Shown piece after piece: positions 4,909 to 63,589 of a stretch of DNA of 64,000 bases (position 1 is its first letter; every line of letters begins with the position of its first letter). The notes below the pieces were generated by a model. That model saw only the letters and a list, made by a program, of their open reading frames with translations, did no database searches and was not told the origin of the DNA. This stretch comes from Minisyncoccota bacterium (GTDB lineage: Bacteria > Patescibacteriota > Minisyncoccia > Phycocordibacterales > UBA6065), in NCBI GenBank assembly GCA_036400935.1, contig DASWWW010000001.1, forward strand, positions 46,096 through 110,095, written 5' to 3'. A program made the position numbers and the translations under genes.

Positions 4909-4998
4909 GCTGACTTATCATACGCGAAACTCAATATAAATCAAAAGATTTCAAAAAAACTTTGAGTTTATATCGGTTTAGTGTATATTAATTCCACT

Positions 4999-5069: not shown

Positions 5070-5079
5070 CAGGTAAACA

Positions 5080-5112
5080 AAAGCGCCCTTCTCTCGGGCG
5101 CTTTTGTTTTGT
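5080..5112 (+). terminator. rho-independent terminator after tRNA-Gly(GCC)
   Basis: aaaagcgcccttctctcgggcgcttttgtttt hairpin plus T-run. Confidence 0.5.
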
Positions 5113-5835: not shown

Positions 5836-5880
5836 ATTTTTACCGACATTGTGCTAGTATGTGAAAGCTCACAAGAGTTT

Positions 5881-5953
5881 CGGGGCGTGGTGTAACGGCT
5901 AACATGCTTCACTTGGGATGAAGTGACTCCGGGTTCGAATCCCGGCGCCCCGA
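5881..5953 (+). tRNA. tRNA-Pro (anticodon TGG)
   Basis: C1:G72 acceptor (CGGGGCG/CGCCCCG), anticodon loop CTTGGGA, T loop TTCGAAT. Confidence 0.8.
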
Positions 5954-5956
5954 CAA

Positions 5957-5990
5957 AATGAAAAACCGCACATGTGCGGTTTTTCATTTT
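5957..5990 (+). terminator. rho-independent terminator after tRNA-Pro
   Basis: aaaaaccgcacatgtgcggttttt perfect hairpin. Confidence 0.5.
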
Positions 5991-6148
5991 GTCGGGGCGA
6001 GCGCGTCCAGAGGACGTGCGACCGGGATTCGAAAAGGTTTTCCCATATTTTCGAGCTTTCCAAGCGAGAAAATGGGAAACCTGTACTGGTCCTGTAAGGA
6101 CCGAATCCCGGCCCTGTCTTTTTTCTTTGTTTTGCATAGACTGTATCT

Positions 6149-6472
6149 ATGGACTCCAAAAAATTCACCCGCACTATAGAGGATTTCACGTGCGGCAACT
6201 GCGGCCTTGAGGTGAAGGGCAACGGCTATACCAATCATTGTCCTAAATGCCTCTGGTCAAAGCATGTCGACAAGAATCCCGGGGACAGACTCGAGGAATG
6301 CGGCGGATTGATGAAGCCGATCGCGATCGCCAAGGAGGGAAAAGATTTCGTGATCACTCACAGGTGCCTTCGGTGTGGTTTCGAGCGCCGCAAGAAGGTG
6401 GAGGAGGGCGATGACTTTGATGCGGTTATCAAAATATCGTCAAGCGCGGACGACAGCGCAACAAAAAAGTAG
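6149..6472 (+). CDS. RNHCP domain-containing protein (Cys-cluster zinc-ribbon)
   Basis: FTCGNCG...GYTNHCPKCLWSKHVD...HRCLRCG: the RNHCP motif with paired CxxC ligands. Confidence 0.7.
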   Translation: MDSKKFTRTIEDFTCGNCGLEVKGNGYTNHCPKCLWSKHVDKNPGDRLEECGGLMKPIAIAKEGKDFVITHRCLRCGFERRKKVEEGDDFDAVIKISSSADDSATKK

Positions 6473-6852
6473 AATTGACGGGATTTGCTACTGTGTCGAA
6501 ATTTGTTGGGGGTCTGAAAGAAAATTACCTGCCAATACGCTCCAATAGCCAATATTTCGATCGAGAAAAGTAAACGCGTCGAAAGTCGATTTGTGTCAAA
6601 TTTCTGAGAGTATTTTGACAGTACAAAACGGCTGTATCGCTTCGGTGGCGCGCTGGTGTTCGGGTGTATGCTAAATATACGAAAGAGGGCGAAAGCTTTC
6701 TTTCGGAAAAGATCTTTTACCAAAGATAATAAAAATACACCTATGAAATTCTCAGATCAGCCAAAGCCAGACCAGAAGCCTCGACCAGACCAGAAGCCGC
6801 CACAGCAGTAAACTAATTTATGAAAAACGGCGTCGCGATTGCTCGCGACGCC

Positions 6853-6972
6853 GTTTTTTGCTACTATCGCTTAGCACTAGTAGGGAACAGGCGGCACATA
6901 TGCGGGCGTGGTTTAATGGTAGAACGATTGCCTTCCAAGCAGTACGTCCGGGTTCGATTCCCGGCGCCCGCA
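6853..6972 (+). repeat. copy 1 of a ~120 bp direct repeat (promoter-region sequence plus tRNA-Gly TCC)
   Basis: gttttttgctactatcgcttagcactagtagggaacaggcggcacatatgcgggcg...cccgcac is identical to 11064-11183. Confidence 0.9.
6902..6972 (+). tRNA. tRNA-Gly (anticodon TCC), copy 1, no CCA encoded
   Basis: Acceptor GCGGGCG/CGCCCGC, anticodon arm ATTGC-CTTCCAA-GCAGT, T loop TTCGATT. Confidence 0.8.
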
Positions 6973-7081
6973 CAAACTCAAAAACTCCTATTTTATATGG
7001 CTTTCCAGAGCCGAGGAATTTTTGGTTAGAACCTCATAATAAAAAGAAGTTCCTTGTGAGAAACTTCTTATTGAATGGAGT

Positions 7082-8225: not shown

Positions 8226-8242
8226 TCTGCACCAACAAATGA

Positions 8243-8266
8243 AAAATCCCCGGAAGGGGATTTTTC
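8243..8266. terminator. hairpin aaaaatccccggaaggggattttt (also present at 11193-11218)
   Basis: Perfect GC-rich stem flanked by A/T runs; bidirectional terminator shape. Confidence 0.5.
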
Positions 8267-8275
8267 GTTGCGATC

Positions 8276-11042: not shown

Positions 11043-11070
11043 AAAAAACCGCCCAGTGAGCGGTTTTTTT
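11043..11070. terminator. hairpin aaaaaaccgcccagtgagcggttttttt (near-identical copy at 11721-11751)
   Basis: Perfect stem with symmetric A/T runs; bidirectional. Confidence 0.5.
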
Positions 11071-11183
11071 GCTACTATCGCTTAGCACTAGTAGGGAACA
11101 GGCGGCACATATGCGGGCGTGGTTTAATGGTAGAACGATTGCCTTCCAAGCAGTACGTCCGGGTTCGATTCCCGGCGCCCGCA
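11064..11183 (+). repeat. copy 2 of the ~120 bp tRNA-Gly-containing direct repeat
   Basis: Identical to 6853-6972. Confidence 0.9.
11113..11183 (+). tRNA. tRNA-Gly (anticodon TCC), copy 2, followed by encoded CCA (11184-11186)
   Basis: Sequence identical to copy 1; 3' context gcaCCAacaa differs from copy 1 (gcacaaactc). Confidence 0.8.
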
Positions 11184-11192
11184 CCAACAAAT

Positions 11193-11218
11193 GGAAAATC
11201 CCCGGAAGGGGATTTTTC
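11193..11218. terminator. hairpin ggaaaatccccggaaggggatttttc (second copy)
   Basis: Identical stem-loop to 8243-8266. Confidence 0.5.
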
Positions 11219-11231
11219 ATTGCCAGCATTG

Positions 11232-23753: not shown

Positions 23754-25955
23754 ATGAAAATGCACTTATTAAAAGCCGGATTCTTATCAGTCGTTTTATT
23801 GGCGGCGGTCGTTGGCGCGAGCAAGGCTGAGGCGCAGGTCTCTTGCCCTGCGGGAAGCCAGTGCGCGTGGATCAGCACGACGGATGTGACGCGCTTTGGC
23901 GTCCGCGCGTCTGCATCGGCGCAAGGTTTTTATAACGATCAGACGACCAAGGACAAGCTCTGCCAGCTCTCGGGCTACGAATCGAATCCTGGTACCGATT
24001 GGTCGGTCAGGCAGCTAAAGTGGAGCAAGTGCAACGCCGAATACCATGTCGATTGGCGCAACGGGGGATGGGATTCCCATAAGTGCGGAGGAGATTCATA
24101 CGTGAGCGAGGTGTACTGCGTCCGATCGGTGCCGGCCGCAGCGGAGCCTGTCGTCACCATCTCGGCGAGCCCTATGGCGGTCCGGCCTTTCAATAAGACT
24201 ACTCTCACGTGGAGCTCTCAGAATACGACATCGTGTACTGCCTCTGGCGATTGGAGCGGATCAAAGTCGACATCAGGCAGCGAGGAGTCGGGCACGCATA
24301 TTATCGGCGGCAAGACGTTCGTTCTTACCTGTACCGGTCCTGGCGGAACTGCGAGCGGGCAGGTAAATACCTCTCTCTATATATTGGCGAGCGCTCCTAC
24401 CGTAGCGTGGGTTTCCAATCCGGCAAGCAGCCCATCGGGTATTGCGTATGTTGTATCGGCAATCGGCACGGATTCTGATAAGGATCTCGATTCCATTATT
24501 ATCAAGAAGTCCGGAGTGACTTTTGCGACAGGCGGCGCCGGAGATGGGGAGCATTCGCTCGCCTCGGCGCAGTCTACCGATACCGGCCCGGCAACTATTA
24601 CCTATACCGCGATCGCCACTGATGCTACCGGCAGGACCTCTCCGGAAATCAGCCACACGGTCACTATCAATACGCCGTCTGTCACCGCTGTCACGCCTCT
24701 CGATGACGGGACGACTCCGCGAACGGGTCCAGCGCCCACGCTGAGCCCTATTGTCGCCACGGTTTCAGCGAGCCCGACCTGCGTCGCGCCGGGCGGAACT
24801 ATTTCGGTGAGCGGATCGGCAAGCGGAGGCGTTCTCAACGGAAACCCTACGATCACCTCGAACGTTTTGGAGAAGGATTCGAACAAGGACGGCGCATATG
24901 GAGCGATCGCGTCGCGTTCGGATGCAGGATCCAATTCGGCGACGGTAAGCGTGCCGTTTTCGGAGACAAGCAACCGCTATGATTTCAGGACGGTGGTTAA
25001 CGGCTCTGTATATAGCGCCGTTCAGAGCGTGACGGTCGATTCGGCCTGCGGCGCCCCTACGGGAATCTGCGCCCTCATTCCCGCATTGTGCGGGCAGCCG
25101 ACTGTTCCGGCTCAGCCGATTTCTCCGAGCGTATCGCTGTCGGTCGGCTCGACCTGCGTTCAGCCGGGATCGAGTGTGACGTTCCGCAGCACTGCAGGAG
25201 GGACCATCACTTCGCACGGCATCGAGAAGGATTCCAATCAGGATGGGGTGTATGGAGGCATGACGGGATTCGCGCCGGGCGCGGGAACACAGACGTACTC
25301 GTCGTCGTTCGGCGAAGGGCTCTATGACTTCAAATCGGTCGTAAACGGAAATATCTATTCGGCGCCTGTCCGAGTCAGCGTATCGCCGGCGTGCGCGCCG
25401 ACGGTCTTTAATCCAGGCATTCCTGGGGGCGGCACGGGCGGAACGGGAGGCGGCGGTTCGATGCTTCCTACATGTACTGGAGGCAAGATCTTGAGCGGCT
25501 CAACGTGCGTCTGCCCATCATCGACTGTTGATGCGGGATCGTTCTGCGCGACGCCGTCATTCACTCTCACGGCTAATCCGAGCACGGTAAAGGTCCGATC
25601 GATCGCCGGATACTCAGGCGTGACGGAGGAGGCGATCAATCTGTCGGTGAACCCATCGTTCTTCACTGCTCCTGTAACGATCGAGGTGGTCTCGGTTTCC
25701 GCCGGTCTTCAGCCGGAATTCTCATTCAATAACGGTGCGTTCGGCTCCTCGCTCATGTCGCCGTTTACCCTCAATAGCGGAGGATTGCAGTACTTACCGG
25801 TAAAGATCCGCTTTGCGGGCAAGCTCTCGAGCTCCGAGAATTACTCCATAACGTTCAGGGCTACCGGTGTGGATAGCAGGGTGGGCGCGATAGTGCAGAC
25901 TGCCACGGTCAATCTCGATTCGAAGCCGCTGTTTCCTGGATATATAGAGATATAG
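23754..25955 (+). CDS. large secreted Ser/Thr/Gly-rich surface protein with internal ~100-aa domain repeats
   Basis: Signal peptide; two homologous blocks (…CVAPGGTISVSGSASGG…YDFRTVVNGSVYSAVQSVTVDSACGAP / …CVQPGSSVTFRSTAGG…YDFKSVVNGNIYSAPVRVSVSPACAP); poly-Gly/Thr linker GGGTGGTGGGGS. Confidence 0.6.
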   Translation: MKMHLLKAGFLSVVLLAAVVGASKAEAQVSCPAGSQCAWISTTDVTRFGVRASASAQGFYNDQTTKDKLCQLSGYESNPGTDWSVRQLKWSKCNAEYHVDWRNGGWDSHKCGGDSYVSEVYCVRSVPAAAEPVVTISASPMAVRPFNKTTLTWSSQNTTSCTASGDWSGSKSTSGSEESGTHIIGGKTFVLTCTGPGGTASGQVNTSLYILASAPTVAWVSNPASSPSGIAYVVSAIGTDSDKDLDSIIIKKSGVTFATGGAGDGEHSLASAQSTDTGPATITYTAIATDATGRTSPEISHTVTINTPSVTAVTPLDDGTTPRTGPAPTLSPIVATVSASPTCVAPGGTISVSGSASGGVLNGNPTITSNVLEKDSNKDGAYGAIASRSDAGSNSATVSVPFSETSNRYDFRTVVNGSVYSAVQSVTVDSACGAPTGICALIPALCGQPTVPAQPISPSVSLSVGSTCVQPGSSVTFRSTAGGTITSHGIEKDSNQDGVYGGMTGFAPGAGTQTYSSSFGEGLYDFKSVVNGNIYSAPVRVSVSPACAPTVFNPGIPGGGTGGTGGGGSMLPTCTGGKILSGSTCVCPSSTVDAGSFCATPSFTLTANPSTVKVRSIAGYSGVTEEAINLSVNPSFFTAPVTIEVVSVSAGLQPEFSFNNGAFGSSLMSPFTLNSGGLQYLPVKIRFAGKLSSSENYSITFRATGVDSRVGAIVQTATVNLDSKPLFPGYIEI

Positions 25956-26026
25956 AAAATATAGGGAAGGTCCGGTGAGAAAAATGCCCGGCGCGCTTCG
26001 CGCGCCGGGCATTTTGCATCCTCGAT

Positions 26027-27019
26027 ATGAGTGATATGATATTGAGGATGAAATCTCTCTTTTTAAAGCTTGCTTTTATTTTCGCTCTCTCGATCTTGCC
26101 GTCGTTCGTCTCTGCTGACGGCGCTCAGAATGTCTCCGGTTTCGCTTGGTCTTCCAATATCGGCTGGATCAGCTTCAACTGCACTAATACAAGCACCTGC
26201 GGAACCGCCAACTACGGCGTTCACATGAATGCGTATGGCTGGCTTTCCGGAAACGAGGCTTCTTCCACTCCTGGATACGCCTGGTCCTCGAATATCGGCT
26301 GGATTCAGTTCGGTGGACTCTCGGGATTCCCAACGGGCAACGGAACATATGCGCAGAACGCTCAGGTCGTTTCAGGAAGCCTGCGCGGATGGGCCCGTGC
26401 CCTCTCGTATGGAGGTGGCTGGGATGGCTGGATCTCGCTTTCGGGAACCTCTCCTAATTACGGGGTGACGCTTTCAGGAAATGATTTCATGGGATATGCC
26501 TGGGGCTCCGATGTCGTAGGCTGGATGACGTTCAATCCCTCTACTGGAAACGGCGTCGTCACGAACGGGGTAGTGGATCCTGCCGCGTTTTCCCTTGGCC
26601 TCGATGAAAGCATCCGCGTAAAGCTTTTGCCTAACGGAACTTCAGAAACCGAGCAGAAAAATGTCACTCTGGGCTTTAATGGCGCCTTCGAAACGGCGGG
26701 AAACCCAGTAACCATAAGCATTCAGAGCTATCCGACCGTAGCAAGCACTACCTTCAGCTACTCGTTCGACGGCGGCCAGAATTACTACACGGCGCCGTCC
26801 GGCTCGCTCACAAAGACGATCCCAAAGGGTTCAAGCCCGTACTATACCGAGAATGTTGCCCTCAGGATTCGCATTAACCGCCTCGCTGGCGCTCCTTCGC
26901 TGACCTCTCCGATGGTCCAGGTGGTGCTCCGCGGCGTCGATTCTGTCGGGGGCACTTCTGACGAGAAGACCTTTACCATAATGCCCGTCACGTTCGATCC
27001 TCGATACGGGGAATTCTAA
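26027..27019 (+). CDS. secreted protein with tandem GYAWSSNIGWI(S/Q)F repeats
   Basis: Signal peptide; at least 4 repeats of aromatic S-N-I-G-W motif. Confidence 0.55.
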   Translation: MSDMILRMKSLFLKLAFIFALSILPSFVSADGAQNVSGFAWSSNIGWISFNCTNTSTCGTANYGVHMNAYGWLSGNEASSTPGYAWSSNIGWIQFGGLSGFPTGNGTYAQNAQVVSGSLRGWARALSYGGGWDGWISLSGTSPNYGVTLSGNDFMGYAWGSDVVGWMTFNPSTGNGVVTNGVVDPAAFSLGLDESIRVKLLPNGTSETEQKNVTLGFNGAFETAGNPVTISIQSYPTVASTTFSYSFDGGQNYYTAPSGSLTKTIPKGSSPYYTENVALRIRINRLAGAPSLTSPMVQVVLRGVDSVGGTSDEKTFTIMPVTFDPRYGEF

Positions 27020-27025
27020 TATCGT

Positions 27026-27319
27026 ATGAAAAAGATACTTATTATCGTAGCAATCATTATTCTCGCCGGAGCAGGCTTTTGGGCATACAAGCTCTGGAAC
27101 GCTCCAGCGCCAGCTCCCGTAGACTTCAAGCCTCTCACTCCTGAGCAAAAGGCGGCCCTTTTTGACGAGCTCGTAGAATCCTCATCCGAGCCGGCGCCGG
27201 CGGTTGAGGTCATTCACCAGTCATTCACCGAGCTCGAGGCGACTTCGGCGTCCTCGACGGTCACTGACAAGCAGAAGGCCGACATGTTCAAGGTGCTGGA
27301 GGAGTCGAGCGTCCGTTAG
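27026..27319 (+). CDS. small membrane-anchored acidic protein (97 aa)
   Basis: N-terminal TM MKKILIIVAIIILAGAGFWAY. Confidence 0.4.
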   Translation: MKKILIIVAIIILAGAGFWAYKLWNAPAPAPVDFKPLTPEQKAALFDELVESSSEPAPAVEVIHQSFTELEATSASSTVTDKQKADMFKVLEESSVR

Positions 27320-27373
27320 GCTTGTTCGGGCAAGTGTTGGTATACTAAAGGCAACATTATTCATCGAAACCAA

Positions 27374-35281: not shown

Positions 35282-36288
35282 ATTTTAAGAACTCACTTCT
35301 GATCGTCGCTGTCGCCGTTATGGCGATTGTCGTCGGATTTGAGTCGTATTTCCTTCTGAAAAACGACAAGCCTCAGGATCCCCTCAGAGCCCTATGGTCG
35401 GGCAATTTCACAAAGGAGCGCGAAGCTTGGAAGAAGCAAATCGACAGGGTTGGTACAGAAAAGGCGTATGAGGAATTCAGGGCAGAGACCCTCGCAAAGC
35501 CATTCGGCATCGGCCACACTCTCGCTCATATATTCGGCGAGCTTATTTACGACAAGGAGGGAGTGCCCGGCATCGCCTATTGCGACAGCTCGTTCTCGTA
35601 CGGCTGCTATCACAGCTTTTTCGGCAAGGCCATCAGCGAGCATGGCGTCGGAATCTTGCCCGACCTCGACAAGAAGTGTATAGGGCGCTGGGGCGAAGGG
35701 GGCCTGGGTTGCCAGCACGGCATTGGTCATGGACTTATGGGCTATCTTGGCGATGACAAGATAAACGAGGCCCTGGAATTGTGCGGGACCCTTACATGGA
35801 AAGGGGAATTGGGCGGCTGCTCGAGCGGAGTGTTTATGGAATACAATTTTCACACGATGCAGAGCCTGACGGGAATCGAGAATCGCCCATTCGACGCCAA
35901 AGATCCGCTCTACCCCTGCGAATCGGTCCCAAAGAAATACACACGATCCTGCTATTTTGAGCTCGCGGACTGGCTGGGCCAGGTATTTGCAAAGGATTAT
36001 ACGAAAGTGGGCGATATCTGCCGCACGGTCGCGGACAAGAATTCGCGGGACATTTGCTTCAAGGGCTTGGGCAATTCGCTTGCTGTAGCGGTATCGTTCG
36101 ACGTTGCGAAAGGGGTAAATGCCTGCTCGCGGCTCGATGGCGAGCAAGAGAATCTCCTTTGCAGGATAGGCGTCGGTTGGGCTTTCTATAGCGAGCCGAA
36201 TCTCAGGGAAAAATATCGGATGCTGTGCGGGGGTCTATCTACCACCGATCAGGCCACCTGCTTAAAAGAGGCAACGCTGCTAAAATAG
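35260..36288 (+). CDS. membrane-anchored Cys/His-rich extracytoplasmic protein, paralog 2 of 3
   Basis: GIGHTLAHIFGELIYD, CDSSFSYGCYHS, CQHGIGHGL, colinear with paralog 1. Confidence 0.5.
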   Translation: MQKRAYLNFKNSLLIVAVAVMAIVVGFESYFLLKNDKPQDPLRALWSGNFTKEREAWKKQIDRVGTEKAYEEFRAETLAKPFGIGHTLAHIFGELIYDKEGVPGIAYCDSSFSYGCYHSFFGKAISEHGVGILPDLDKKCIGRWGEGGLGCQHGIGHGLMGYLGDDKINEALELCGTLTWKGELGGCSSGVFMEYNFHTMQSLTGIENRPFDAKDPLYPCESVPKKYTRSCYFELADWLGQVFAKDYTKVGDICRTVADKNSRDICFKGLGNSLAVAVSFDVAKGVNACSRLDGEQENLLCRIGVGWAFYSEPNLREKYRMLCGGLSTTDQATCLKEATLLK

Positions 36289-36293
36289 TCTCA

Positions 36294-37466
36294 ATGAGGA
36301 ATATCGTTATCGCAATCGCGATCGTCGCAGCATTCATTGCCGGCGAGATCGTCTATTTGAAATCAGGCCCTTCATATGGAGGCTTGGACAAGCTCGCGAG
36401 CAAGATAATCTCCGACTGCGCCGATGCGCCATACAAGCCTACTTGTTACGAAGAGGAGATACCGAGGCTTATGAATAGGATTTCCATGGAGGACGCATTC
36501 AAAGTAACCCGTTTCGTCCAAAGCATGGATAGGACATATCAGTATTGCCATGTCTTGGGGCACAAGATCGCCGCAGCCGAGACGGCGACGGATCCTGCAC
36601 GCTGGCAGACCGTCATACAGCGCTGTCCGTCGGGCGTCTGCTCAAACGGCTGCATTCACGGAGCGTTTCAGGAACGCTTTAGGAAAGAATCGCTCACCGA
36701 CGATGAGATCTTAAAGCTCAAGCCGCAGCTCTCTTCTGTCTGTGAGAAGAAATCGGGCTTCAATCCGACCGGCCTCGAGCAGGGAAGCTGCTATCACGCT
36801 CTCGGACACCTTTTGATGTATATCACCGAGGCGGATGTACCAAAATCGCTCGCGCTGTGCAATGAGTTCAGCAAGAAGCCGACCCACGATTACTCGCACG
36901 TCTGCTATGACGGGGTATTCATGCAGATTTATCAGCCGCTCGAGCCAGACGACTTCAGCCTGATCGAGGGGAAGGAGGTTTCGCGCGAGGAAGTTTCCGC
37001 GTTCTGCGGCGCTTTCACGGGCGAGGAGGCCGGCTCGTGCTATTCGGAATCGTGGCCGCTCTTCTATGAGGATTTGCGAAAGCCTACCAATCTCCTGAAA
37101 TTCTGCGCAAAACCGGAGGGCGAAAAGGAGCAGCGAAGATGCTTCGACACTTTGATGTACGTCATGGCCGCTCAGTTTGCCTTCAATAATGAAAAAATAT
37201 TCGCGTACTGCGAGGCAATGCCTACCGATTTCCACAAGGCAACCTGCATGGCCCAGGCTGCCAACCGCATGATCGAAACCGACTACTCCAACGGCGAATT
37301 GGCAACAGCCGTCTGCGAGAGGGCGGAGGCGTATGACAAGGATCACATCTGCTTCAATGACCTGTTGAAGTATTCGACGTTCAATTTCCATAAGGGGTCT
37401 GAGCCCTGGAAAGCTTTTTGTAACGCTATGCCGGAGCCGTGGATGGCGCGATGTTTGAGCCGCTAG
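36294..37466 (+). CDS. membrane-anchored Cys/His-rich extracytoplasmic protein, paralog 3 of 3
   Basis: CHVLGHKIAA, CPSGVCSNGCIHGA, CYHALGHLL; start at MRNIVIAIAI. Confidence 0.55.
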   Translation: MRNIVIAIAIVAAFIAGEIVYLKSGPSYGGLDKLASKIISDCADAPYKPTCYEEEIPRLMNRISMEDAFKVTRFVQSMDRTYQYCHVLGHKIAAAETATDPARWQTVIQRCPSGVCSNGCIHGAFQERFRKESLTDDEILKLKPQLSSVCEKKSGFNPTGLEQGSCYHALGHLLMYITEADVPKSLALCNEFSKKPTHDYSHVCYDGVFMQIYQPLEPDDFSLIEGKEVSREEVSAFCGAFTGEEAGSCYSESWPLFYEDLRKPTNLLKFCAKPEGEKEQRRCFDTLMYVMAAQFAFNNEKIFAYCEAMPTDFHKATCMAQAANRMIETDYSNGELATAVCERAEAYDKDHICFNDLLKYSTFNFHKGSEPWKAFCNAMPEPWMARCLSR

Positions 37467-37489
37467 CGTTAGCTAGTATAATTCGGTAG

Positions 37490-37984
37490 ATGAAAAAGAT
37501 ACTCTTTGTGCTGCTGGTCGCAGCTGTTCCTGTATTCGCATCGGCTCATTATGGCATCGCCTCGCTCGAGAAGACGGTGGGGGAATATTTTTTTGACATC
37601 GGCTATAGCGCCGAATTCATTGCCGGCGACTTGATCAGGTTCGACCTCGCGGTCCTGGACGAGACTACGCGCGAAATCCTTCCGTTCTCGAATGTTTGGG
37701 TACGCATCAAGGAGGGTGACAGGCTCCTCTTTGCCGGCCCAATAGATTATGGCGAGTTTGGCAGGCCGGGATTCAGCTTCGTATTTCCTCGCGAGGGCGA
37801 GTACACGCTCTCGACCCGGTTCGAGACGCCGTCGCAGCAAATCCCGGAGCAGGATTTCTCTATAGCGGTTGTCCGCTCGCCGGAGGAATCGCGCTACGCC
37901 GAATGGCTCATACGCATCGCGGCGCTTGCGGCCGGCGCGGGCGTCGGAATCGCTTCGGTCCTAATTTTTAAGAAACATGCATAA
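37490..37984 (+). CDS. secreted protein with C-terminal TM anchor (164 aa)
   Basis: Signal peptide MKKILFVLLVAAVPVFASAHYG; C-terminal hydrophobic stretch. Confidence 0.4.
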   Translation: MKKILFVLLVAAVPVFASAHYGIASLEKTVGEYFFDIGYSAEFIAGDLIRFDLAVLDETTREILPFSNVWVRIKEGDRLLFAGPIDYGEFGRPGFSFVFPREGEYTLSTRFETPSQQIPEQDFSIAVVRSPEESRYAEWLIRIAALAAGAGVGIASVLIFKKHA

Positions 37985-38366
37985 GAAAACAATAATCATA
38001 TCGGCGGTCGTCGTGCTCGCGCTTGCTGCAATTGCGGCTCTTGTCTTTTCGAAAGGCGGTGACAAGGCGCCTGCTGCCGATATCGTGCCTACGGTCACTA
38101 TTTCCATGACAAAGGATGGCTTTTCGCCCAATACTTCATCCATAAAGCTCGGCGAGGCGGTCATGTTCCGAAACGATACGGCTTCTGATTTCTTTTGGCC
38201 GGCATCCGACCTTCATCCGACGCACGAACTCTATCCGGAATTCGATCCGCGCATGCCGATCGAGCCGGGCGGGAGCTGGACGTTCGTGTTCGAGCGAGTG
38301 GGCAACTGGAGCTATCATGATCATCTCTATGCTCGAAAGAAGGGGTTGATTACTGTAACCCAATAG
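37977..38366 (+). CDS. membrane-anchored cupredoxin-like domain protein
   Basis: Beta-sandwich-like pattern with His clusters (DLHPTHELY, SYHDHLY); no Cys ligand, so not a classic blue-copper site. Confidence 0.35.
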   Translation: MHKKTIIISAVVVLALAAIAALVFSKGGDKAPAADIVPTVTISMTKDGFSPNTSSIKLGEAVMFRNDTASDFFWPASDLHPTHELYPEFDPRMPIEPGGSWTFVFERVGNWSYHDHLYARKKGLITVTQ

Positions 38367-39173: not shown

Positions 39174-40910
39174 ATGCACATCGAAGAACAACAGCTCAAG
39201 GCTTTCATAAACGATTCGGGTCTCGTATCGCGCGGCGACGTCGCAGACGCGGAGAGGGAAGCCAAGGAGAAAAGGCTGAGCCTCGGCGAGATTCTCGTCA
39301 ATCGGGGAAAGCTTTCTGAAGACGACCTTCGCAAGATGAAGGCGTACATTCTCGGCATTCCGTATATCGATCTCAAGGGCCACAAGATAGACTTCTCCGT
39401 GCTCTCTCTCGTGCCTGAGCCGATCGTCCGCAGCCACAACGTCGTGGCGTTCAAGAGGGGCGAGGGTACCCTGGAGGTCGCGATGCTCAATACTGGCGAC
39501 TTGGCCGTTATTGATTTCATCCAGAAGAAGGTCGGCGTAAAGATATTGCCTCGCCTGACCGACTCCGACTCGATCAAGTCGGCTCTCGTCCAGTATCAGA
39601 AGGGGCTCAAGTCCGAATTCGGCGACCTTATCAGGCAGGAGACGGCCTCGATCAAGCAGATTTCCGGCGATCTCAAGAAAATTACCGAGGATCTTTCCGT
39701 CATTCGCATCGTCGACACCCTCCTGAAGCACGCCATTATCCAGGGCGCGTCCGATATTCATCTGGAGCCTCTCGAGAAGGAGCTTCTGGTGCGCTATCGC
39801 ATCGACGGTCGCCTGCACGACGCCATGGTTCTCCCAAAGGATGCTGAGAATGCAGTCATCGCACGCATAAAGATGCTCTCGAGCCTCAAGCTCGACGAGA
39901 AACGCCTGCCGCAGGACGGCCGTTTCAAGATCGAGATGAACGGCGAGAAGATCTCGCTGCGCGTTTCCGTGCTGCCCATGTTCTATGGCGAGAAAATCGT
40001 CATGCGCCTTCTCCGCGAGAGCGTTTCCGGCTTTACCCTCGAGCATTTGGGCTTTCACGGCGAGGCTCTCGAGCGCATCCATGCCGCGACAAAGCTTTCT
40101 GCCGGCATGATCCTCGCTACCGGCCCCGCTGGCTCCGGAAAATCGACGGCCCTCTACACTCTGCTCGATATTTTGAATACTCCCGACGTAAACATCTCCA
40201 CAGTCGAGGATCCTGTTGAATATCAGATGGCCCGCGTCAATCAGATGCAGGTCAGGCCGGATATCGGGTTCACGTTCGCTTCCGGATTGCGCAGCATCGT
40301 CCGTCAGGACCCCGATATCATCATGGTGGGGGAGATCCGCGACAATGAGACCGCGTCGCTCGCGACCAATGCGGCCCTTGCCGGGCGCCTCGTGCTCTCG
40401 ACGCTTCCTGCCAAATCGGCGTCGAGCGCCATCTCGCGAATGATCGAGATGAAGACCGAACCATTCCTCCTTGCGTCTACCGTCTCAGTCGTTATCGGAC
40501 AGAGGCTCGTCCGCAGGCTCTCTGACGCGTCAAAGGACCGCAGGGCGCTCACAAAGGGGGAATTGGCCGCATTGTCCAAGGTCATAGATTTGGATCGCAT
40601 GCTGGGCTTTTTAAAGGCAGAGAAGGTTATCGGCCCGAAAGACGGATGGGACAAGGTCATGTTTGGCGCCCCTGTAGTTACAAAGGATTCGGATGGCTAC
40701 AAGGGACGCATCGGCATACACGAAGTGCTCAAGATGACTCCGACGCTCAAGGAACTGGTGCTTAAGGGATCGACAGCTGCTGCTATTGAGGCTCAGGCAA
40801 AGAAGGAGGGAATGATGACGCTTCTGGAAGACGGAATATTCGTAGCGGCGCAGGGATTGACCGCAATCGAGGAAGTCCTGCGGGTCGTTTCAGAAGAGAA
40901 GGCAAAATAA
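39174..40910 (+). CDS. type IV pilus assembly / type II secretion ATPase PilB/GspE
   Basis: N1 domain, Walker A ATGPAGSGKST, Asp box, Walker B DPDIIMVGEIRD, His box. Confidence 0.85.
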   Translation: MHIEEQQLKAFINDSGLVSRGDVADAEREAKEKRLSLGEILVNRGKLSEDDLRKMKAYILGIPYIDLKGHKIDFSVLSLVPEPIVRSHNVVAFKRGEGTLEVAMLNTGDLAVIDFIQKKVGVKILPRLTDSDSIKSALVQYQKGLKSEFGDLIRQETASIKQISGDLKKITEDLSVIRIVDTLLKHAIIQGASDIHLEPLEKELLVRYRIDGRLHDAMVLPKDAENAVIARIKMLSSLKLDEKRLPQDGRFKIEMNGEKISLRVSVLPMFYGEKIVMRLLRESVSGFTLEHLGFHGEALERIHAATKLSAGMILATGPAGSGKSTALYTLLDILNTPDVNISTVEDPVEYQMARVNQMQVRPDIGFTFASGLRSIVRQDPDIIMVGEIRDNETASLATNAALAGRLVLSTLPAKSASSAISRMIEMKTEPFLLASTVSVVIGQRLVRRLSDASKDRRALTKGELAALSKVIDLDRMLGFLKAEKVIGPKDGWDKVMFGAPVVTKDSDGYKGRIGIHEVLKMTPTLKELVLKGSTAAAIEAQAKKEGMMTLLEDGIFVAAQGLTAIEEVLRVVSEEKAK

Positions 40911-58001: not shown

Positions 58002-58724
58002 ATGTCTATCACCATATTTACTGACGGATCGTCCCGAGGAAATCCCGGACCAGGCGGCTGGGGCGCTATTGTCCGCACGGAATCGAAAGTCACCGAGCTC
58101 GGTGGGCGGGAGGATCATACGACGAACAATCGCATGGAGCTTTTAGCGGCCATCAGCGCATTGGATTCCGTAGTTTCGCAGAAAATCAGCGGCAAGAAGA
58201 TCCTCGTGCAGAGCGATTCTAAATACGTCATTCAGGGAATTACTTCTTGGGTCTCTGGCTGGAAGAGGAACGGCTGGATCACTGCCGGCAAGAAAGAGGT
58301 GGGGAATCGCGATCTATGGGAGGCGCTTTCGGGCGCTGTCGCATCGGTTGGCGCTGCTGGCAATGCGGTCTCTTGGAAATACGTCGAGGGGCATGCTGGC
58401 CATCCTGGGAACGAGCGCTGCGACGAGATCGCGACGACGTTTGCCGACAAGTCTCCGACCGACCTGTATGCGGGCGCCCGCGACAGCTATCCGATAGACC
58501 TCGACGCCGCACCTGCCGCGGGCGCCCAGGCCGCCAATGCTAAAAAGAAATCCTCCTCATCGGTCAAAGCCTATTCATATCTGTCGCTCGTGGACGGCGT
58601 CCTTCAGATTCACAAGACCTGGGCCGAATGCGAGGCTCGCGTAAAAGGAGTGCGAGGAACAAAATTCAAGAAATCTATTTCCGCCGCAGACGAGGCAGCC
58701 ATCAGGAAGGAGTGGGGAGTGTAG
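58002..58724 (+). CDS. rnhA: ribonuclease HI with C-terminal extension
   Basis: IFTDGSSRGNPGPGGWGAIV...TNNRMELLAAISAL...VQSDSKYVIQGI...WKYVEGHAGHPGNERCDEIA. Confidence 0.8.
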   Translation: MSITIFTDGSSRGNPGPGGWGAIVRTESKVTELGGREDHTTNNRMELLAAISALDSVVSQKISGKKILVQSDSKYVIQGITSWVSGWKRNGWITAGKKEVGNRDLWEALSGAVASVGAAGNAVSWKYVEGHAGHPGNERCDEIATTFADKSPTDLYAGARDSYPIDLDAAPAAGAQAANAKKKSSSSVKAYSYLSLVDGVLQIHKTWAECEARVKGVRGTKFKKSISAADEAAIRKEWGV

Positions 58725-59464: not shown

Positions 59465-60808
59465 ATGGGCAATCGCGCTTTTTACGTAATCTTTCTCTCC
59501 TTTTTCGGCTGCGTATTCGTATTCACGATGGCGGATTCAAAATTTGGCATTCTTGATGACGGCGTTCATCCCCTCGATCAACTTGTCGGCACGAAGGTTT
59601 CCGTAACGGGCATCGTATGCGCCGAGCCCGAAGCTCGCGACGCTTCATTGAAATTTTGCTTTGAGTCGGAGCGGGGAGGAAAGCGAATTTTGGTTACAGC
59701 AGCGCGCTATCCGGAATATTCGTACGGTGATGAACTGATCCTGTCAGGCAAGCTGGAATTTCCGGAGATTATCGAATCCGAGGACGGCAGCCCGCCGTTT
59801 GATTACCCGAGGTATCTGGCGAAAGACGGCATTCGCTATCTCATGTCCCGTCCGACGGTAGAGGATACGGGCGAGAATAAGGGAAATAGGCTGATCGTCA
59901 TGCTGTTTGCGCTCAAGTCGGCCTTTACAGGCCTGATGCAGGATCTTTTTCCTGAGCCTGAATCGTCGCTCCTCGCAGGAATCCTTTTGGGCGAGAAATC
60001 GGGTCTGTCGCCGGAGCTTACGGACCAATTTCGCAATGCGGGGCTCGTCCACATACTCGTCCTCTCGGGCTCGAACGTGACAGTCGTCGCCGAAGGGTTG
60101 ATGAAGACGTTCGCATTCCTGCCCGCAGCCTTGTCGCGGATATTCGGCGCCGGATCGATCATCTTGTTCGCCCTTATGACTGGAGCGTCGGCGACGACCG
60201 TACGCGCGACTATCATGGCGCTTATCGTCATATTGGCGAAATCCTCGGCCCGACGCTACGACGTGACGCGGGCGCTCGTGCTGGCGGCCTTCGGTATGAC
60301 GCTCGAAAATCCACAGATCCTGGCATTCGATGCCTCATTCCAGCTTTCGTTCCTGGCTACGCTCGCGCTCATATATGTCGCGCCCATCGTCGAAGAGAAG
60401 CTGTCGTGGGTGACGGACCGATTCAAGCTGCGCGAGATGCTGGCGACGACGATCGGCACTCAGATACTGACGACACCCCTGATACTGCACATGTCGGGAA
60501 ATCTCTCAATTGTGTCGCTGCCGCCGAACTTGCTCGTCCTGCCGCTCGTACCCTTGTCGATGCTCGGTGGCTTCGTGGCAGTAATGGTCGGTTTCGTAAG
60601 CGAGACCTTGGCCCTGCCTTTCGCGTGGGGAACGTCGCTCGTCCTTTCGTACATTATAAAAGTGACCGTATTCTTTGGCGGTTTGCCATTTGCCGCCGTA
60701 GAAATGAGAATGAGCGCTTCCGCGCTCACGATCTCATACACCGCTATCGTCTGGTATCTGGTTATTTATTGGCGTCGGCGAAATTCTTTGCCGCAGTCTC
60801 CCAATTGA
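59465..60808 (+). CDS. ComEC/Rec2 family DNA-uptake channel protein, membrane part (DUF4131 plus Competence domains)
   Basis: OB-like N-terminal region, then ILLGEKSGLSPELTDQFRNAGLVHILVLSGSNV...FQLSFLATLALI, the ComEC competence-domain signature. Confidence 0.7.
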   Translation: MGNRAFYVIFLSFFGCVFVFTMADSKFGILDDGVHPLDQLVGTKVSVTGIVCAEPEARDASLKFCFESERGGKRILVTAARYPEYSYGDELILSGKLEFPEIIESEDGSPPFDYPRYLAKDGIRYLMSRPTVEDTGENKGNRLIVMLFALKSAFTGLMQDLFPEPESSLLAGILLGEKSGLSPELTDQFRNAGLVHILVLSGSNVTVVAEGLMKTFAFLPAALSRIFGAGSIILFALMTGASATTVRATIMALIVILAKSSARRYDVTRALVLAAFGMTLENPQILAFDASFQLSFLATLALIYVAPIVEEKLSWVTDRFKLREMLATTIGTQILTTPLILHMSGNLSIVSLPPNLLVLPLVPLSMLGGFVAVMVGFVSETLALPFAWGTSLVLSYIIKVTVFFGGLPFAAVEMRMSASALTISYTAIVWYLVIYWRRRNSLPQSPN

Positions 60809-61355
60809 GGTTCGCGAAGAAATCCTCGACGTACTGTTTCTTGCCCGAAGGCTGATAGTCGGCGACGAACGAGTGCTCCCACATGTCGAGCATGAGGACA
60901 GGGGAGATGCCTGTGAGGTGCCCGAGATGCTGCTCGTCTATCCATGCGTTGACGAGACGGCCGTTCGCATTGTCAAAATAGAGCACTGCCCAGCCGATAC
61001 CGCGAGTCATGGCGACTGCCTTGAATCGGGCAAGCCACGCGTCGAACGATCCCCATTCTGCGGCGATCGCTTGTGAGAGAGCACTGTCTGATGAAAGCGC
61101 CTTTGCGCCGCCTTCGAGGTGGGAGAAATAGAACTCATGGTTCCTCATGCCGTCGAACTCAAAGCCGAAGCGTCGCTGCATCTCGCCGACAGCGTAGGCG
61201 TTCTTCTCGTCTTTTGCCATCTCGTCGATCTTCTCGATGATGAGGTTGGCGTGCTTCACGTATCCTGCGTAGAGCTTGAGATGCTCCTCGATGCTTTTTG
61301 CTGAGATTCCCTTGAGCGCGGGGATATTGAATTTCCTTTCTTCGAATTTTTTCAT
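60762..61355 (-). CDS. Fe/Mn superoxide dismutase
   Basis: FNIPALKGISAKSIEEHLKLYAGYV; FGFEFDGMRNHEFYF; DMWEHSFVADYQ (metal ligands His/His/Asp/His); start at MKKFEERKF. Confidence 0.85.
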   Translation of the reverse strand: MKKFEERKFNIPALKGISAKSIEEHLKLYAGYVKHANLIIEKIDEMAKDEKNAYAVGEMQRRFGFEFDGMRNHEFYFSHLEGGAKALSSDSALSQAIAAEWGSFDAWLARFKAVAMTRGIGWAVLYFDNANGRLVNAWIDEQHLGHLTGISPVLMLDMWEHSFVADYQPSGKKQYVEDFFANLNWETAAKNFADANK

Positions 61356-61415
61356 AGCGGTTCTGAAATTAGCTGATATATACCTATTATACGCATTGTG
61401 AGTATAATTTCTTGC

Positions 61416-62177
61416 ATGCATCCGAATATCAAAGCATTGCGGCAGGCGTTGGCAGAGACGGGCGTGGCTTTTTCGTCTGTAGAGGGCTTTGAGGATATCG
61501 TCATGGTCGCTGGCCATCCGTTCATGTACGCTCTGACACCGTTCAATACCCATTCGGGTTCGGCGGTCTGTCTCGACAAGGCAATGCTGTTCAAGCTGCT
61601 TGAAGGCAGGGTCCGCATGCCCCGTACGGTAAGTATCGTCGACCCTAACGGCGACTATCCTAAGCATATTAAGGTCGATGGCCTTGAGGAATCCTTTAAG
61701 AAAGCTTCAGGCATTCCTTATCCCCTCATCGTTAAGATGAATGCGGGCGACGCCGGCCGAAACGTGTACAAGGTGGACACCGAAGTCGAGGCGAGAGACG
61801 GCATCGCGGCTATTTTTAACAAAGCGTCGAAAAACTATGATTTTATCGCCCTTGTTCAAGAATACATAAAGCCCGTTCGCGAGATCCGCGCGGTTATCGT
61901 GAACGGCAAGTTCTCCTTTGCCTATGACAGGAAGGGCGCTGACATGTTGTCTGGAGAGGTTGCCGATGAAGTCAGCCGGCTTTCAAAAATCATTCTCGGT
62001 ACTGTTTCACTGTCATGGTGTGCCCTCGATTTCATCGAATCGGAATCCGGCGAGCTCTATTTCCTCGAGGCGAATACCCGGCCGGGATTCGAAGGCTTCC
62101 TTGCCCGCCATGGCGACAGGCTTTTGGTCGATGCGTATAAAGATGCCTTGAAGTCTTTCCTTGAGATATGGAGATAA
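61416..62177 (+). CDS. ATP-grasp domain protein (RimK/GshB-like ligase)
   Basis: PLIVKMNAGDAGRNVYKV...ALVQEYIKPVREIRAVIVNGK...YFLEANTRPGFEG. Confidence 0.6.
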   Translation: MHPNIKALRQALAETGVAFSSVEGFEDIVMVAGHPFMYALTPFNTHSGSAVCLDKAMLFKLLEGRVRMPRTVSIVDPNGDYPKHIKVDGLEESFKKASGIPYPLIVKMNAGDAGRNVYKVDTEVEARDGIAAIFNKASKNYDFIALVQEYIKPVREIRAVIVNGKFSFAYDRKGADMLSGEVADEVSRLSKIILGTVSLSWCALDFIESESGELYFLEANTRPGFEGFLARHGDRLLVDAYKDALKSFLEIWR

Positions 62178-63025
62178 TCACCCAACATTTTCGTAAGGTG
62201 GTGCTCGCGACGCTTACGTGCGTCGCTTTTGCTGTCTGTATCGCTTATTTCATGGAACGAAACTCGGGTCTGCTTCACGTGTACTTCCTTGACGTGGGGC
62301 AGGGCGATGCCATTTACATTCGCACGCCTAACGGCCGTGACATGCTCATTGACTCTGGTCCTAATCGCGCCGTGGTTCAGAGGCTGTCGGAAGTAATGCC
62401 GTGGTATGACAAGTCTATCGATGTGGCTCTCGAGACGCATCCCGATGCCGATCATATTGGTGGGTTCCCTCAAATACTGGAACGGTACAAGATCGGCGTA
62501 TTTGTGGAACCGGGCGTCGAATCCGCGAATGCCGTAGATGATGAGATCCGAAGTCTGCGTGCCGAGAAGGCCGTCGCCGGCGAGATCGCGCGGCGCGGTA
62601 TCCGCATTGATTTCGGCGACGGCGCCCATTTCGACATCCTGTACCCCGACACCGATCCGTCAAAGATGGAAACGAACGACGCGTCGATCATCGGCAGGCT
62701 TGTGTACGGCTCGACGTCGGTGATGCTTACGGGCGACGCGCCGAAATCGGTAGAGAATAGGCTCCACATGCTCGACGGCGAACGGTTGGCGAGCACTATC
62801 CTGAAGGCAGGGCATCACGGATCTAAAGGCTCTTCAGGAGAATCGTTCGTGAGAGCGGTCGGCCCTCTGTTTGGCGTCATCTCGGCGGGCAGAAAGAATC
62901 GCTACGGCCATCCGCATAAGGAGGTCATGGATATCTTGGCCGCCGGGCGGGTCGAAGTATCGCGAACCGATATGGAGGGAACGATCGGCTTCGTATCCGA
63001 TGGCAAAGCCTTCTTCAAGGAATAA
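62168..63025 (+). CDS. ComEC C-terminal metallo-beta-lactamase domain protein (separate gene)
   Basis: YFLDVGQGDAIYIRTPNGRDMLIDSG...HPDADHIGG...LKAGHHGSKGSS (MBL HxHxDH plus ComEC-type motifs), N-terminal TM. Confidence 0.7.
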   Translation: MEIITQHFRKVVLATLTCVAFAVCIAYFMERNSGLLHVYFLDVGQGDAIYIRTPNGRDMLIDSGPNRAVVQRLSEVMPWYDKSIDVALETHPDADHIGGFPQILERYKIGVFVEPGVESANAVDDEIRSLRAEKAVAGEIARRGIRIDFGDGAHFDILYPDTDPSKMETNDASIIGRLVYGSTSVMLTGDAPKSVENRLHMLDGERLASTILKAGHHGSKGSSGESFVRAVGPLFGVISAGRKNRYGHPHKEVMDILAAGRVEVSRTDMEGTIGFVSDGKAFFKE

Positions 63026-63046
63026 AAAAGAACGGCCAATGCCGTT

Positions 63047-63589
63047 CTAGGGGATCGATAGCTCGTCCACGATCCTCAAATCGGTTTCGGAGAGTATGAC
63101 CTTCATGTTCTGATCGCGAACCATGACGCCTTCGATCTTCTTGCCGCTAAAAATGGTCTCTATTACCCACGGATCGCCGTCTATCATTGGCGCTGGAAGC
63201 TCTGTCGGCTTCCACCAGCCTGGACGGGTCATTTCTCTTGACGGCATCGGCTGCGCGTTCGGGATTCTGACGATATAGATATGGCACTCGCAATCCTCGA
63301 CGCCTTCGCGCCGATAGGTAATGATGGCCATTTTTTGCATCTGATTAGGCTGGGCCATGACCTCGCTTTCCTCGTAGAGCTCGCGCCGGGCGGCGAAGTC
63401 TATCGTGGGGTCGCTGGTCTCGACTTTGCCTCCGTAGGTTGTCCATTTCCAGTGCAGCTTGCGTCTTTCTGCGCTCGGGGTCTTCTCTTTCCAGGCAAAG
63501 CACACTTCTAGGAAGCCTTGCAGGTCGCGAGCGAGATAGCAGATCGTAGCTCGCGGGGTAACTGTGACTGTAGGGGAGGGCTGGTTCAT
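63047..63589 (-). CDS. NUDIX hydrolase
   Basis: Nudix box YGGKVETSDPTIDFAARRELYEESEV. Confidence 0.6.
   Translation of the reverse strand: MNQPSPTVTVTPRATICYLARDLQGFLEVCFAWKEKTPSAERRKLHWKWTTYGGKVETSDPTIDFAARRELYEESEVMAQPNQMQKMAIITYRREGVEDCECHIYIVRIPNAQPMPSREMTRPGWWKPTELPAPMIDGDPWVIETIFSGKKIEGVMVRDQNMKVILSETDLRIVDELSIP

Follow-up and report, generated by a model that had tools for sequence, protein, structure and literature searches.

The channel and nuclease parts of ComEC are encoded by separate genes in a Patescibacteriota genome, with a superoxide dismutase gene and an ATP-grasp gene located between them

Bacterial transformation relies universally on ComEC as the gate through which DNA enters. 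Here, we have compared the ComEC of an ultra-small Minisyncoccota bacterium (Patescibacteriota) with the ComEC systems that have been described so far; the stretch of DNA that we have analysed is 64,000 nucleotides (nt) long, corresponds to positions 46,096 to 110,095 of contig DASWWW010000001.1 (assembly GCA_036400935.1), and is referred to as “the window”, with all coordinates being those of this stretch unless another locus is named. In the window, ComEC is present as two open reading frames (ORFs) that are two parts of one protein: a channel part, which we refer to as “ComEC-N”, and a metallo-beta-lactamase (MBL) nuclease part, which we refer to as “the MBL protein”; between the two genes are located a superoxide dismutase (SOD) gene on the opposite strand and a gene for an ATP-grasp ligase. 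The best explanation of this arrangement, to which we assign a probability of roughly 0.7, is a ComEC of two polypeptides that goes back to an ancient fission, with the SOD and the ligase being passengers.

The closest described system is the fused ComEC/Rec2, as represented by the solved full-length structure 30bt_A (801 residues) and by the ComEC that was resolved in 2026 by cryo-electron microscopy (PMC13539106). The latter possesses 11 transmembrane (TM) helices, with a short cytoplasmic helix located between TM10 and TM11; these two helices lie at the periphery of the channel, TM11 showing mobility, and a small contact surface with the OB fold, which is conserved, keeps the MBL domain in position (PMC13539106). 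The nuclease motif of ComEC has been described as H-x-D-x-D-H (PMC12455585). The window shares with the fused protein the same three domains (DUF4131-Competence-Lactamase_B) in the same order and the same metal motif, but distributes them over two polypeptides, with 1.36 kb and two unrelated genes separating the coding regions, and has a shorter N-terminal TM region. A second comparison is offered by Streptococcus pneumoniae, with its ComEC and EndA, and by the Helicobacter pylori-type ComEC, where the channel is without an active nuclease domain of its own and any strand degradation is carried out by a separate membrane-bound protein (PMC12455585); in the window, in contrast to an unrelated nuclease such as EndA, the protein that is encoded apart is ComEC's own MBL domain, together with the C-terminal TM helix of ComEC.

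Closer to the window in taxonomic terms, ComEC-dependent transformation has been shown in one cultivated Saccharibacterium (PMC10633639), and Méheust et al. (2019, Nat Commun) describe the ComEC-MBL fusion as essentially absent from bacteria of the candidate phyla radiation (CPR), which is the same phenomenon at the level of the protein family (PMC6744442); their passage on this point reports the absence of the fusion only, with no mention of a retained, TM-anchored MBL partner gene beside ComEC, of where the break lies, of the wedged SOD gene or of the inserted ATP-grasp gene. Pimentel and Zhang (2018) treat a ComEC without Lactamase_B as a case of domain loss or gain, with the words “split” and “separate” being absent from their text (PMC6299819), and the recent structural papers on ComEC note only the existence of domain-less variants (PMC12455585). 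The unfused state of ComEC in CPR bacteria is therefore already known; for the retained, TM-anchored partner gene and for the inserted genes we have found no description, since full-text literature searches have returned no prior account of a split ComEC, of its partner gene, of the break point, of the SOD wedge or of the nested ATP-grasp gene.

ComEC-N (447 amino acids (aa); 59465-60808, plus strand) matches nearly the complete Competence profile in the Pfam scan (PF03772, E = 1.2e-48, profile positions 1-269 of 270), and its residues 5-130 match DUF4131 (PF13567, E = 1.6e-10, 41.4 bits against a cut-off of 31.6); positions 1-29 of the DUF4131 profile, i.e. the start of the model, which we read as the first TM helix, are left unmatched. 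The build of ComEC-N is one N-terminal TM helix, followed by the OB fold (DUF4131) and by the multi-helix Competence domain. The MBL protein (285 aa; 62168-63025, plus strand) matches PF00753 in the same scan (E = 6e-14). On models of the entire protein the two ORFs are complementary: ComEC-N covers positions 83-413 and the MBL protein positions 424-663 of TIGR00361 (663 positions), neither half reaching the equivalog cut-off of 190 bits (83.2 bits for ComEC-N, 135.2 bits for the MBL protein), while on the solved structure 30bt_A, residues 84-440 of ComEC-N align with residues 141-496, and residues 7-280 of the MBL protein align with residues 507-789 (E = 1.9e-33), about ten residues of the fused protein being left uncovered between the two. 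The two sets of domains are located on separate polypeptides with an opposite-strand gene between them, i.e. they do not form a single-chain ComEC.

The break is located in a short, positively charged loop ahead of the last TM helix of the canonical ComEC. ComEC-N ends in the basic tail YWRRRNSLPQSPN, and the MBL protein starts with MEIITQHFRK; its residues 11-29 (about 62198-62254, from hydropathy) form one strongly hydrophobic helix, the only one of this protein and the counterpart of the last TM helix in fused ComEC; the loop is thus divided between YWRRRN on the one side and HFRK on the other. Because the tail of ComEC-N (WRRRN) and the start of the MBL protein (HFRK) are both basic, the break would, by the positive-inside rule, face the cytoplasm; the cut would lie within the TM10-TM11 loop and would release a module of “TM11 + nuclease”. 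In an alignment of 20 homologs, the metal-binding residues of the MBL protein (H91-P-D93-A-D95-H96, H216, H217 and H248) are invariant and fit the H-x-D-x-D-H motif of the ComEC nuclease, here on a polypeptide of its own; 49 further columns of this alignment are invariant, and its C-terminal end shows no conservation.

An earlier reading of the window, made without database searches (the sequence-only reading), had described four ORFs, i.e. a ComEC channel part, an SOD, an ATP-grasp ligase and an MBL domain with its own N-terminal TM segment, with 1.36 kb between the two ComEC parts. The ORF list and the domain scans agree with this description: the TM segment is the single hydrophobic helix mentioned above, and 1,359 nt separate the stop of ComEC-N from the start of the MBL gene. 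The SOD gene (197 aa; 60762-61355, minus strand, with the same call on other contigs) is convergent with ComEC-N, as had been said; it also overlaps ComEC-N by 47 nt at the 3' ends of both genes (60762-60808), and the ORF as originally listed (60762-61667) is over-extended, the start of the gene being the ATG at 61355. The ATP-grasp gene (253 aa; 61416-62177, plus strand) starts most likely at the ATG at 61416, with a GTG at 61398 being possible, and its stop codon (TAA, 62175-62177) does overlap the start of the MBL gene (ATG, 62168), the shared stretch being 10 nt long (62168-62177, plus strand).

The SOD and ATP-grasp genes diverge from an intergenic region of 60 nt (61356-61415), which is the likely promoter site for both; promoter-like hexamers (consensus matches only) occur at 61363-61390 on the plus strand and at 61432-61404 on the minus strand. 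Downstream of the MBL gene, the 21-nt spacer that separates it from a convergent NUDIX gene holds a terminator-like hairpin (63029-63048, minus strand; consensus scan only). The promoter and terminator scans gave counts that are barely or not above the shuffled expectation and are to be taken as weak hints. A further terminator-like site, a GC-rich hairpin with a T-run, is located at 62207-62226, 40 nt inside the MBL coding region and among the codons of the TM helix; since terminator-like sites are no more numerous in this region than expected from shuffling, this one is probably due to chance. No structured RNA was found in the intergenic regions, Rfam having returned one match at chance level (E = 0.33).

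The arrangement is reproduced in independent data. The identical MBL protein is present on six contigs from separate assemblies, among them two Logan assemblies that stem from different runs and share the gene order, and the arrangement of the window is also present in a metagenome-assembled genome (MAG) at NCBI, where the identical protein is listed under a Candidatus Paceibacterota bacterium. The closest relative, locus L083 (GCA_964368565.1), possesses the same four genes in the same order, with an MBL protein that is 82% identical and a ComEC-N that is 91% identical to those of the window. A pseudogenised ComEC-N was considered for L083, where the gene call is 249 aa long, and was rejected: the short call is due to a run of N in the scaffold, with the frame intact on both sides. 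In comparison with L083, the MBL gene has a ratio of nonsynonymous to synonymous divergence (dN/dS) of 0.039, similar to the values of two neighbouring genes, i.e. 0.046 for the RNase H gene that is located upstream of ComEC-N and 0.030 for the L28 gene that is located downstream of the MBL gene, these three being the only genes with finite values; for ComEC-N, SOD and ATP-grasp dS is saturated, with dN being 0.06, 0.23 and 0.21, respectively. Selection maintains all four genes. Because the catalytic residues of the MBL protein are invariant and the dN/dS of its gene is 0.039, both halves of ComEC look functional, as far as the sequences tell. The two halves are retained, are syntenic across the clade and are under purifying selection, as befits a split ComEC; the complementary ORFs, the invariant catalytic residues and the low dN/dS also speak for the suggestion of the sequence-only reading that ComEC is encoded here as two polypeptides.

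The split is not confined to the closest relatives. The best 120 homologs of the MBL protein are, without exception (120 of 120), standalone proteins of 227-309 aa; those with a named source come from Paceibacterota or Patescibacteria, including Taylorbacteria and Zambryskibacteria, and several of them carry the database annotation “ComEC/Rec2 family competence protein”. With the MBL alignment, we have fetched the 80 best-matching loci from species-representative genomes (numbered with the prefix L), where the homologs of the window proteins have been placed by tblastn and the ORFs have been traced. ComEC-N and MBL are fused in one ORF (785-868 aa where complete) in 21 of the 80 loci, of which 20 belong to Chloroflexota and one to Longimicrobium (Gemmatimonadota); they are located in separate ORFs in 41 of the 80, mostly from Patescibacteria (the raw tally of 43 split loci in 82 also includes L001 and L002, which are the window's own arrangement); and in the remaining 18, with mixed labels, the ComEC-N gene is not within the available flank. 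Among the 80 loci, none of those labelled as Patescibacteria has a fused ComEC.

In 12 loci labelled as Patescibacteria the halves are adjacent cistrons with nothing between them, as in L046 (Giovannonibacteria), L076 (Kerfeldbacteria), L077 (Moranbacteria), L005, L023 and L052, and in five of these 12 the junction is an overlap, of 4 nt in L023 and L046, 8 nt in L052, 14 nt in L080 and 26 nt in L005. Sequencing frameshifts were considered as the source of these adjacent, overlapping halves and were rejected, the pattern being consistent across lineages. The gene order RNase H / ComEC-N / SOD / MBL / L28 recurs in many of the split loci. The split is an old, clade-wide trait and not a local event; a fission or insertion confined to this locus does not agree with the lack of a fused form among the Patescibacteria-labelled loci, and neither part of the counter-case that the sequence-only reading had named, i.e. 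a fused ComEC in all relatives together with an assembly chimera here, has been encountered, as the relatives are split and the six independent contigs agree.

The SOD gene is a frequent neighbour of the break. Its product matches PF02777 (E = 1.9e-22, 79.7 bits) and, just under the cut-off of 27 bits, PF00081 (26.1 bits); its best match among solved structures is the Fe-SOD 1coj_A (E = 4.7e-26), with the paired motifs EEH/EPH, NHEFYF/LHELYF and DMWEH/DTYEH, which we take to contain the four metal ligands of SOD (His, His, Asp, His), all conserved. The order ComEC-N (plus), SOD (minus), MBL (plus), without the ATP-grasp gene, occurs in at least 17 representative loci, among them L030, a complete 644-kb Paceibacterota chromosome; most of the loci with the SOD wedge have RNase H upstream of ComEC-N and L28 downstream of MBL, and in most of them the alignment of the SOD stops 27-168 nt upstream of the alignment of the MBL protein, with the two genes being divergent. 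In L017, L019 and L038 there is 0.7-1.8 kb of extra DNA between these two alignments, in L003 and L013 the SOD adjoins the MBL gene with ComEC-N being 2.6-7.9 kb off, and on four short contigs (L008, L015, L016 and L041) the SOD also adjoins the MBL gene. The 3' ends of ComEC-N and SOD overlap by 47-73 nt in the window and in L006, L010, L030, L032, L083, L084, L085 and L087, while in other lineages the overlap is shorter, or the genes abut or are separated by small gaps. Where they overlap, the codons for the cytoplasmic tail of ComEC-N are antisense to those for the conserved C-terminus of the SOD; such an antisense overlap could help to hold the two genes together.

Unrelated genes are also located between the halves, or between SOD and MBL, in other lineages; the identities of these ORFs have been judged by eye from their translations, with no domain scans. 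They resemble a malic enzyme (NAD-dependent, 382 aa; positions 8279-9427 of L038), RNase III (positions 7128-7844 of L033) and a multi-helix membrane protein of the DedA type (positions 3979-4569 of L021, opposite strand), and further include a 189-aa ORF without assignment (positions 1541-2110 of L016), small membrane proteins (L017, L085 and L087) and another ORF in L019. This slot acts as a site of repeated insertion, and since it tolerates insertions, co-transcription of the two halves is not required.

The protein that is encoded by the ATP-grasp gene is a short ligase that resembles RimK, LysX and Ddl. It matches PF08443 and TIGR00768 weakly (66.2 bits for TIGR00768 against a cut-off of 143.4), is below the cut-off of every curated family, with the specific equivalog models being far below theirs, and its best profile match to a solved structure is with generic ATP-grasp enzymes (E = 2e-7). 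With its AlphaFold2 model (pLDDT 90.9), Foldseek retrieves LysX, ArgX, RimK and Ddl at about 20% identity, with probability 1.00 and TM-scores (query-normalised) of 0.55-0.68. It shares the ATP-grasp fold with RimK/LysX/ArgX and with the D-Ala-D-Ala ligases, the family-invariant residues K107, E149, D205, E218 and N220 being present, but differs from them by this low identity, by a truncated N-terminal domain (the protein being 253 aa long) and by its score below the cut-off of TIGR00768. Among its own relatives, the invariant residues include K107, Q148, E149, E156, R158, D205, E218 and N220. Judging from the model, the protein is an enzyme of the ATP-grasp fold that has kept the residues that bind ATP and Mg.

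In a word-indexed search, 14 relatives of the ATP-grasp protein were found, and all of those with a usable context are located directly upstream of MBL. This position is seen in six lineages (the window, L083, L084, L085, L087 and L088), across which the identity of the ligase falls to 40%; stop and start overlap by 10 nt in the window, by 4 nt in L083, L084 and L088, and by 29 nt in L087, and a gap of 99 nt separates the genes in L085. The identities of ligase and MBL protein to those of the window fall in step (71/82% in L083, 52/65% in L084 and 41/54% in L088), which fits vertical co-inheritance since a single insertion. Because the genes overlap stop to start, co-transcription and coupled translation of ligase and MBL protein are likely; the sequence-only reading, which had taken the two for co-transcribed, is on this point consistent with an overlap that is conserved in five of the six lineages, the co-transcription itself being deduced from that overlap. 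A shared function is not likely, and the ligase is probably a passenger.

The ligase is not tied to ComEC elsewhere. A homolog is present in none of the 80 representative loci (0 of 80), so that most split ComECs work without the ligase. A confinement of the family to the slot upstream of MBL was considered and rejected: a profile hidden Markov model scan of 1.84 billion cluster representatives returned 166 clusters of the family at E <= 1e-30, some of them in unrelated contexts, such as the members with about 30% identity in L090 (a cyanobacterium-like contig), L093 (between an aminotransferase and GreA) and L095 (beside enolase), with no ComEC gene nearby. In one lineage of the ATP-grasp subclade, represented by two MAGs, L091 and L092 (GCA_028866595.1 and GCA_028871755.1; ligase identity 38%), ComEC-N, SOD and ATP-grasp are in place (positions 1-3400 of L091 and 490-4500 of L092), whereas MBL is missing from the locus and tblastn detected no remnant of it, the short contigs fitting loss or relocation; at the position of MBL these loci have a minus-strand ORF of 69-86 aa.

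The distribution of the genes also bears on the order in which they came together. Since 12 loci have their halves adjacent, several of them overlapping, the split is better explained as older than either insertion, and the suggestion that an inserted SOD/ATP-grasp pair had split ComEC is not supported by these same loci, which have nothing between the halves. A joint insertion of SOD and ATP-grasp was likewise rejected: the presence of the SOD without the ATP-grasp gene in at least 17 loci, together with the nesting of the ATP-grasp clade, indicates that the two genes arrived at different times. In a tree of the MBL proteins (neighbour-joining, midpoint-rooted and rough, yet supporting the nesting), the fused forms group together, the adjacent-split Patescibacteria are separate deep branches, the loci with the SOD wedge are a nested group, and the six loci with the ATP-grasp gene are one clade inside it. 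The simplest and most likely order of events would be an ancient fission in Patescibacteria, from which two neighbouring cistrons would have resulted, the stop of the first overlapping the start of the second in several cases, followed by the insertion of an Fe/Mn SOD on the opposite strand in a subclade of Paceibacteria, which would have left the nuclease gene beside a compact, divergent promoter region, and lastly by the insertion of the ATP-grasp gene between SOD and nuclease gene in a smaller subclade that includes the genome of the window; with this last step, the nuclease gene would have come to follow the ATP-grasp gene, with an overlap, in a newly formed unit of two genes.

As for how the two polypeptides may work, the first subunit, ComEC-N, would contribute the extracytoplasmic OB fold and the DNA channel, and the second, a single-pass protein with a cytoplasmic N-terminus, would consist of the last TM helix of the canonical ComEC and of the extracytoplasmic MBL nuclease domain. 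The break is located in the loop before the last TM helix, therefore each half should insert with its native topology. The nuclease subunit would dock on the channel subunit through the peripheral TM helix and the OB-fold/MBL interface and, once docked, would degrade the non-transported strand. ComEC-N would be expressed from a promoter of its own, and the nuclease as the second cistron behind ATP-grasp, from the 60-nt divergent region shared with the SOD, where the promoter matches are weak; the SOD and the ATP-grasp ligase would most likely be passengers without a role in DNA uptake.

Several points weigh against this reading. Support for the proposed association of the two polypeptides is indirect, coming from the retained TM helix and from the OB/MBL interface of the fused ComEC, and the MBL domain of ComEC alone is a poor nuclease in vitro, whose performance improves when the OB fold is part of the same chain (PMC12455585). 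In L003, L020 and L035 a distance of 3-8 kb separates the halves, 18 loci are without ComEC-N inside the stored flank (up to 10 kb, several contigs being short), and L091 and L092 are without the MBL gene at the locus; therefore the halves are not obligatorily linked. The 80 loci are the best matches to an alignment derived from Paceibacteria, with Microgenomatia, true Saccharimonadia and Gracilibacteria being outside this sample; the taxon labels are those of the record titles and are perhaps unreliable, as many loci labelled “uncultured Candidatus Saccharibacteria” show the synteny of Paceibacteria; and the direction of the event, fission or fusion, lies outside the reach of the MBL tree.

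The main functional alternative, unlikely yet serious, is that the MBL protein has ceased to belong to ComEC since the split and is an independent, membrane-anchored extracellular nuclease, e.g. one that breaks down environmental DNA for nucleotide salvage, with ComEC-N being a channel without a nuclease, as in species whose ComEC has no active MBL domain. The tolerance of the slot to unrelated insertions, the distant or missing ComEC-N genes and the two MAGs that keep ComEC-N with MBL gone from the locus would all be accommodated; there is a precedent for a nuclease in trans in EndA of S. pneumoniae, some transformable species are without the MBL domain (PMC12455585), and CPR bacteria are believed to obtain nucleotides by scavenging DNA (PMC6744442). 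What speaks for a subunit of ComEC instead is that the MBL protein keeps a homolog of the last ComEC TM helix, is syntenic with ComEC-N across most of the clade and, in several of the lineages with adjacent genes, keeps the stop/start overlap with ComEC-N; moreover, an isolated ComEC MBL domain has very low affinity for DNA and low activity without the OB fold (PMC12455585). A combination of the two, in which the nuclease is a separately regulated subunit with two jobs, docking on the channel for import and acting as a free nuclease for nucleotide salvage, with its expression driven from the promoter region shared with the SOD, here through the ATP-grasp cistron, is in our view improbable. It is more improbable still that the ligase is a functional partner of the nuclease subunit, modifying the nuclease or another component of uptake or making a small product that is needed: its position directly upstream of MBL in six lineages, with an overlap in five of them, its invariant catalytic residues and the fact that the nearest folds, LysX, ArgX and RimK, ligate amino acids to protein C-termini are what could be expected of a partner, but the ligase is retained in L091 and L092 where MBL is gone, has members in contexts without ComEC, is absent from the 80 representative loci, and would face an unconserved MBL C-terminus and an extracytoplasmic MBL domain, being itself without a signal peptide or TM segment.

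The two remaining alternatives concern the origin of the split. That the two genes were never fused, the two-gene state being ancestral in Patescibacteria and the fusion having occurred later in other phyla, so that the window would show a state from before the fusion with insertions added, is the main historical alternative and rather unlikely: Pimentel and Zhang (2018) infer an ancestor with Competence alone, which acquired Lactamase_B several times later on (PMC6299819), and the MBL tree, which is effectively unrooted, separates fused from split cleanly, but the closest relatives of the MBL proteins outside Patescibacteria, those of Chloroflexota, are fused, as are the solved ComECs of the Terrabacteria type, and the standalone protein starts exactly at the last TM helix, as if a loop had been cut, even if a fusion would give the same boundary. 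The choice between fission and a never-fused state bears on the history only and leaves the two-subunit reading unchanged. An artefact or decay, be it a chimeric assembly, a frameshift from sequencing or a ComEC that has become a pseudogene, has a negligible probability; the sole suspicious case is the short ComEC-N call of L083, due to the run of N, and against such an origin stand the six independently assembled contigs, the opposite-strand gene that sits between the halves, the persistence of the arrangement across dozens of genomes, the strong purifying selection and the intact catalytic residues.

If ComEC does work as two subunits in these bacteria, its last TM helix and MBL domain would be shown to be detachable from the channel, and the site before that helix becomes a candidate place for splitting ComEC in biochemical work. 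Recent structural work argues that the nuclease of ComEC works well only beside the OB fold on the same chain, and a bacterial radiation with a separate, membrane-anchored nuclease is a natural experiment on this point. Survey counts of “loss of the Lactamase_B domain” may include domains that are encoded separately. Patescibacteria cannot make nucleotides, and in them the uptake and the degradation of DNA are possibly regulated separately; if the nuclease had the two jobs considered above, DNA degradation and uptake would be tied to the oxidative or metal status of the cell, and many of the ComECs that have been surveyed as nuclease-less would have a nuclease in trans. The main use of the wedged SOD gene and of the inserted ATP-grasp gene is to mark, by synteny, nested clades of Paceibacteria.

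Some further features of the window may be mentioned. The RNase H gene (58002-58724), which is located upstream of ComEC-N and is syntenic with it in most relatives, has a C-terminal extension of about 90 aa with a weak match to PF01693, the “RNase H1 N-terminal” hybrid-binding domain (residues 203-224, E = 2.8e-4); if this match is real, the order of the domains is reversed with respect to the name of the Pfam family. A block of about 15 kb (23754-38366) consists mostly of plus-strand ORFs (733, 330, 263, 566, 404, 342 and 413 aa, among others), most of them with N-termini that resemble signal peptides or TM segments; the seven large ORFs of the block that were scanned gave no Pfam match at E <= 1e-5, and no classical pilin motif was seen in the block. 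It is followed by a gene for an ATPase of the PilB/T2SSE type (39174-40910), and may be a clade-specific cluster of surface or pilus genes that is relevant to DNA uptake.

Near the start of the window, a direct repeat of 124 nt, with 99% identity between copies that are 4,211 nt apart (6854-6977 and 11065-11188), consists of a tRNA-Gly(TCC) gene and about 48 nt of its upstream flank; between the copies are located two TrmB-like helix-turn-helix genes, an S-adenosylmethionine (SAM) methyltransferase gene and a 249-aa ORF. A hairpin-like repeat of 43 nt follows the first TrmB gene (8229-8271) and the second tRNA copy (11181-11223), and a tyrosine recombinase of the XerC/D or phage-integrase type (PF00589, 3.4e-42; 814-1863) is located a few kb from the tRNA cluster at 4834-6973. 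The region of the 124-nt repeat could be a tRNA-integrated element or a segmental duplication.

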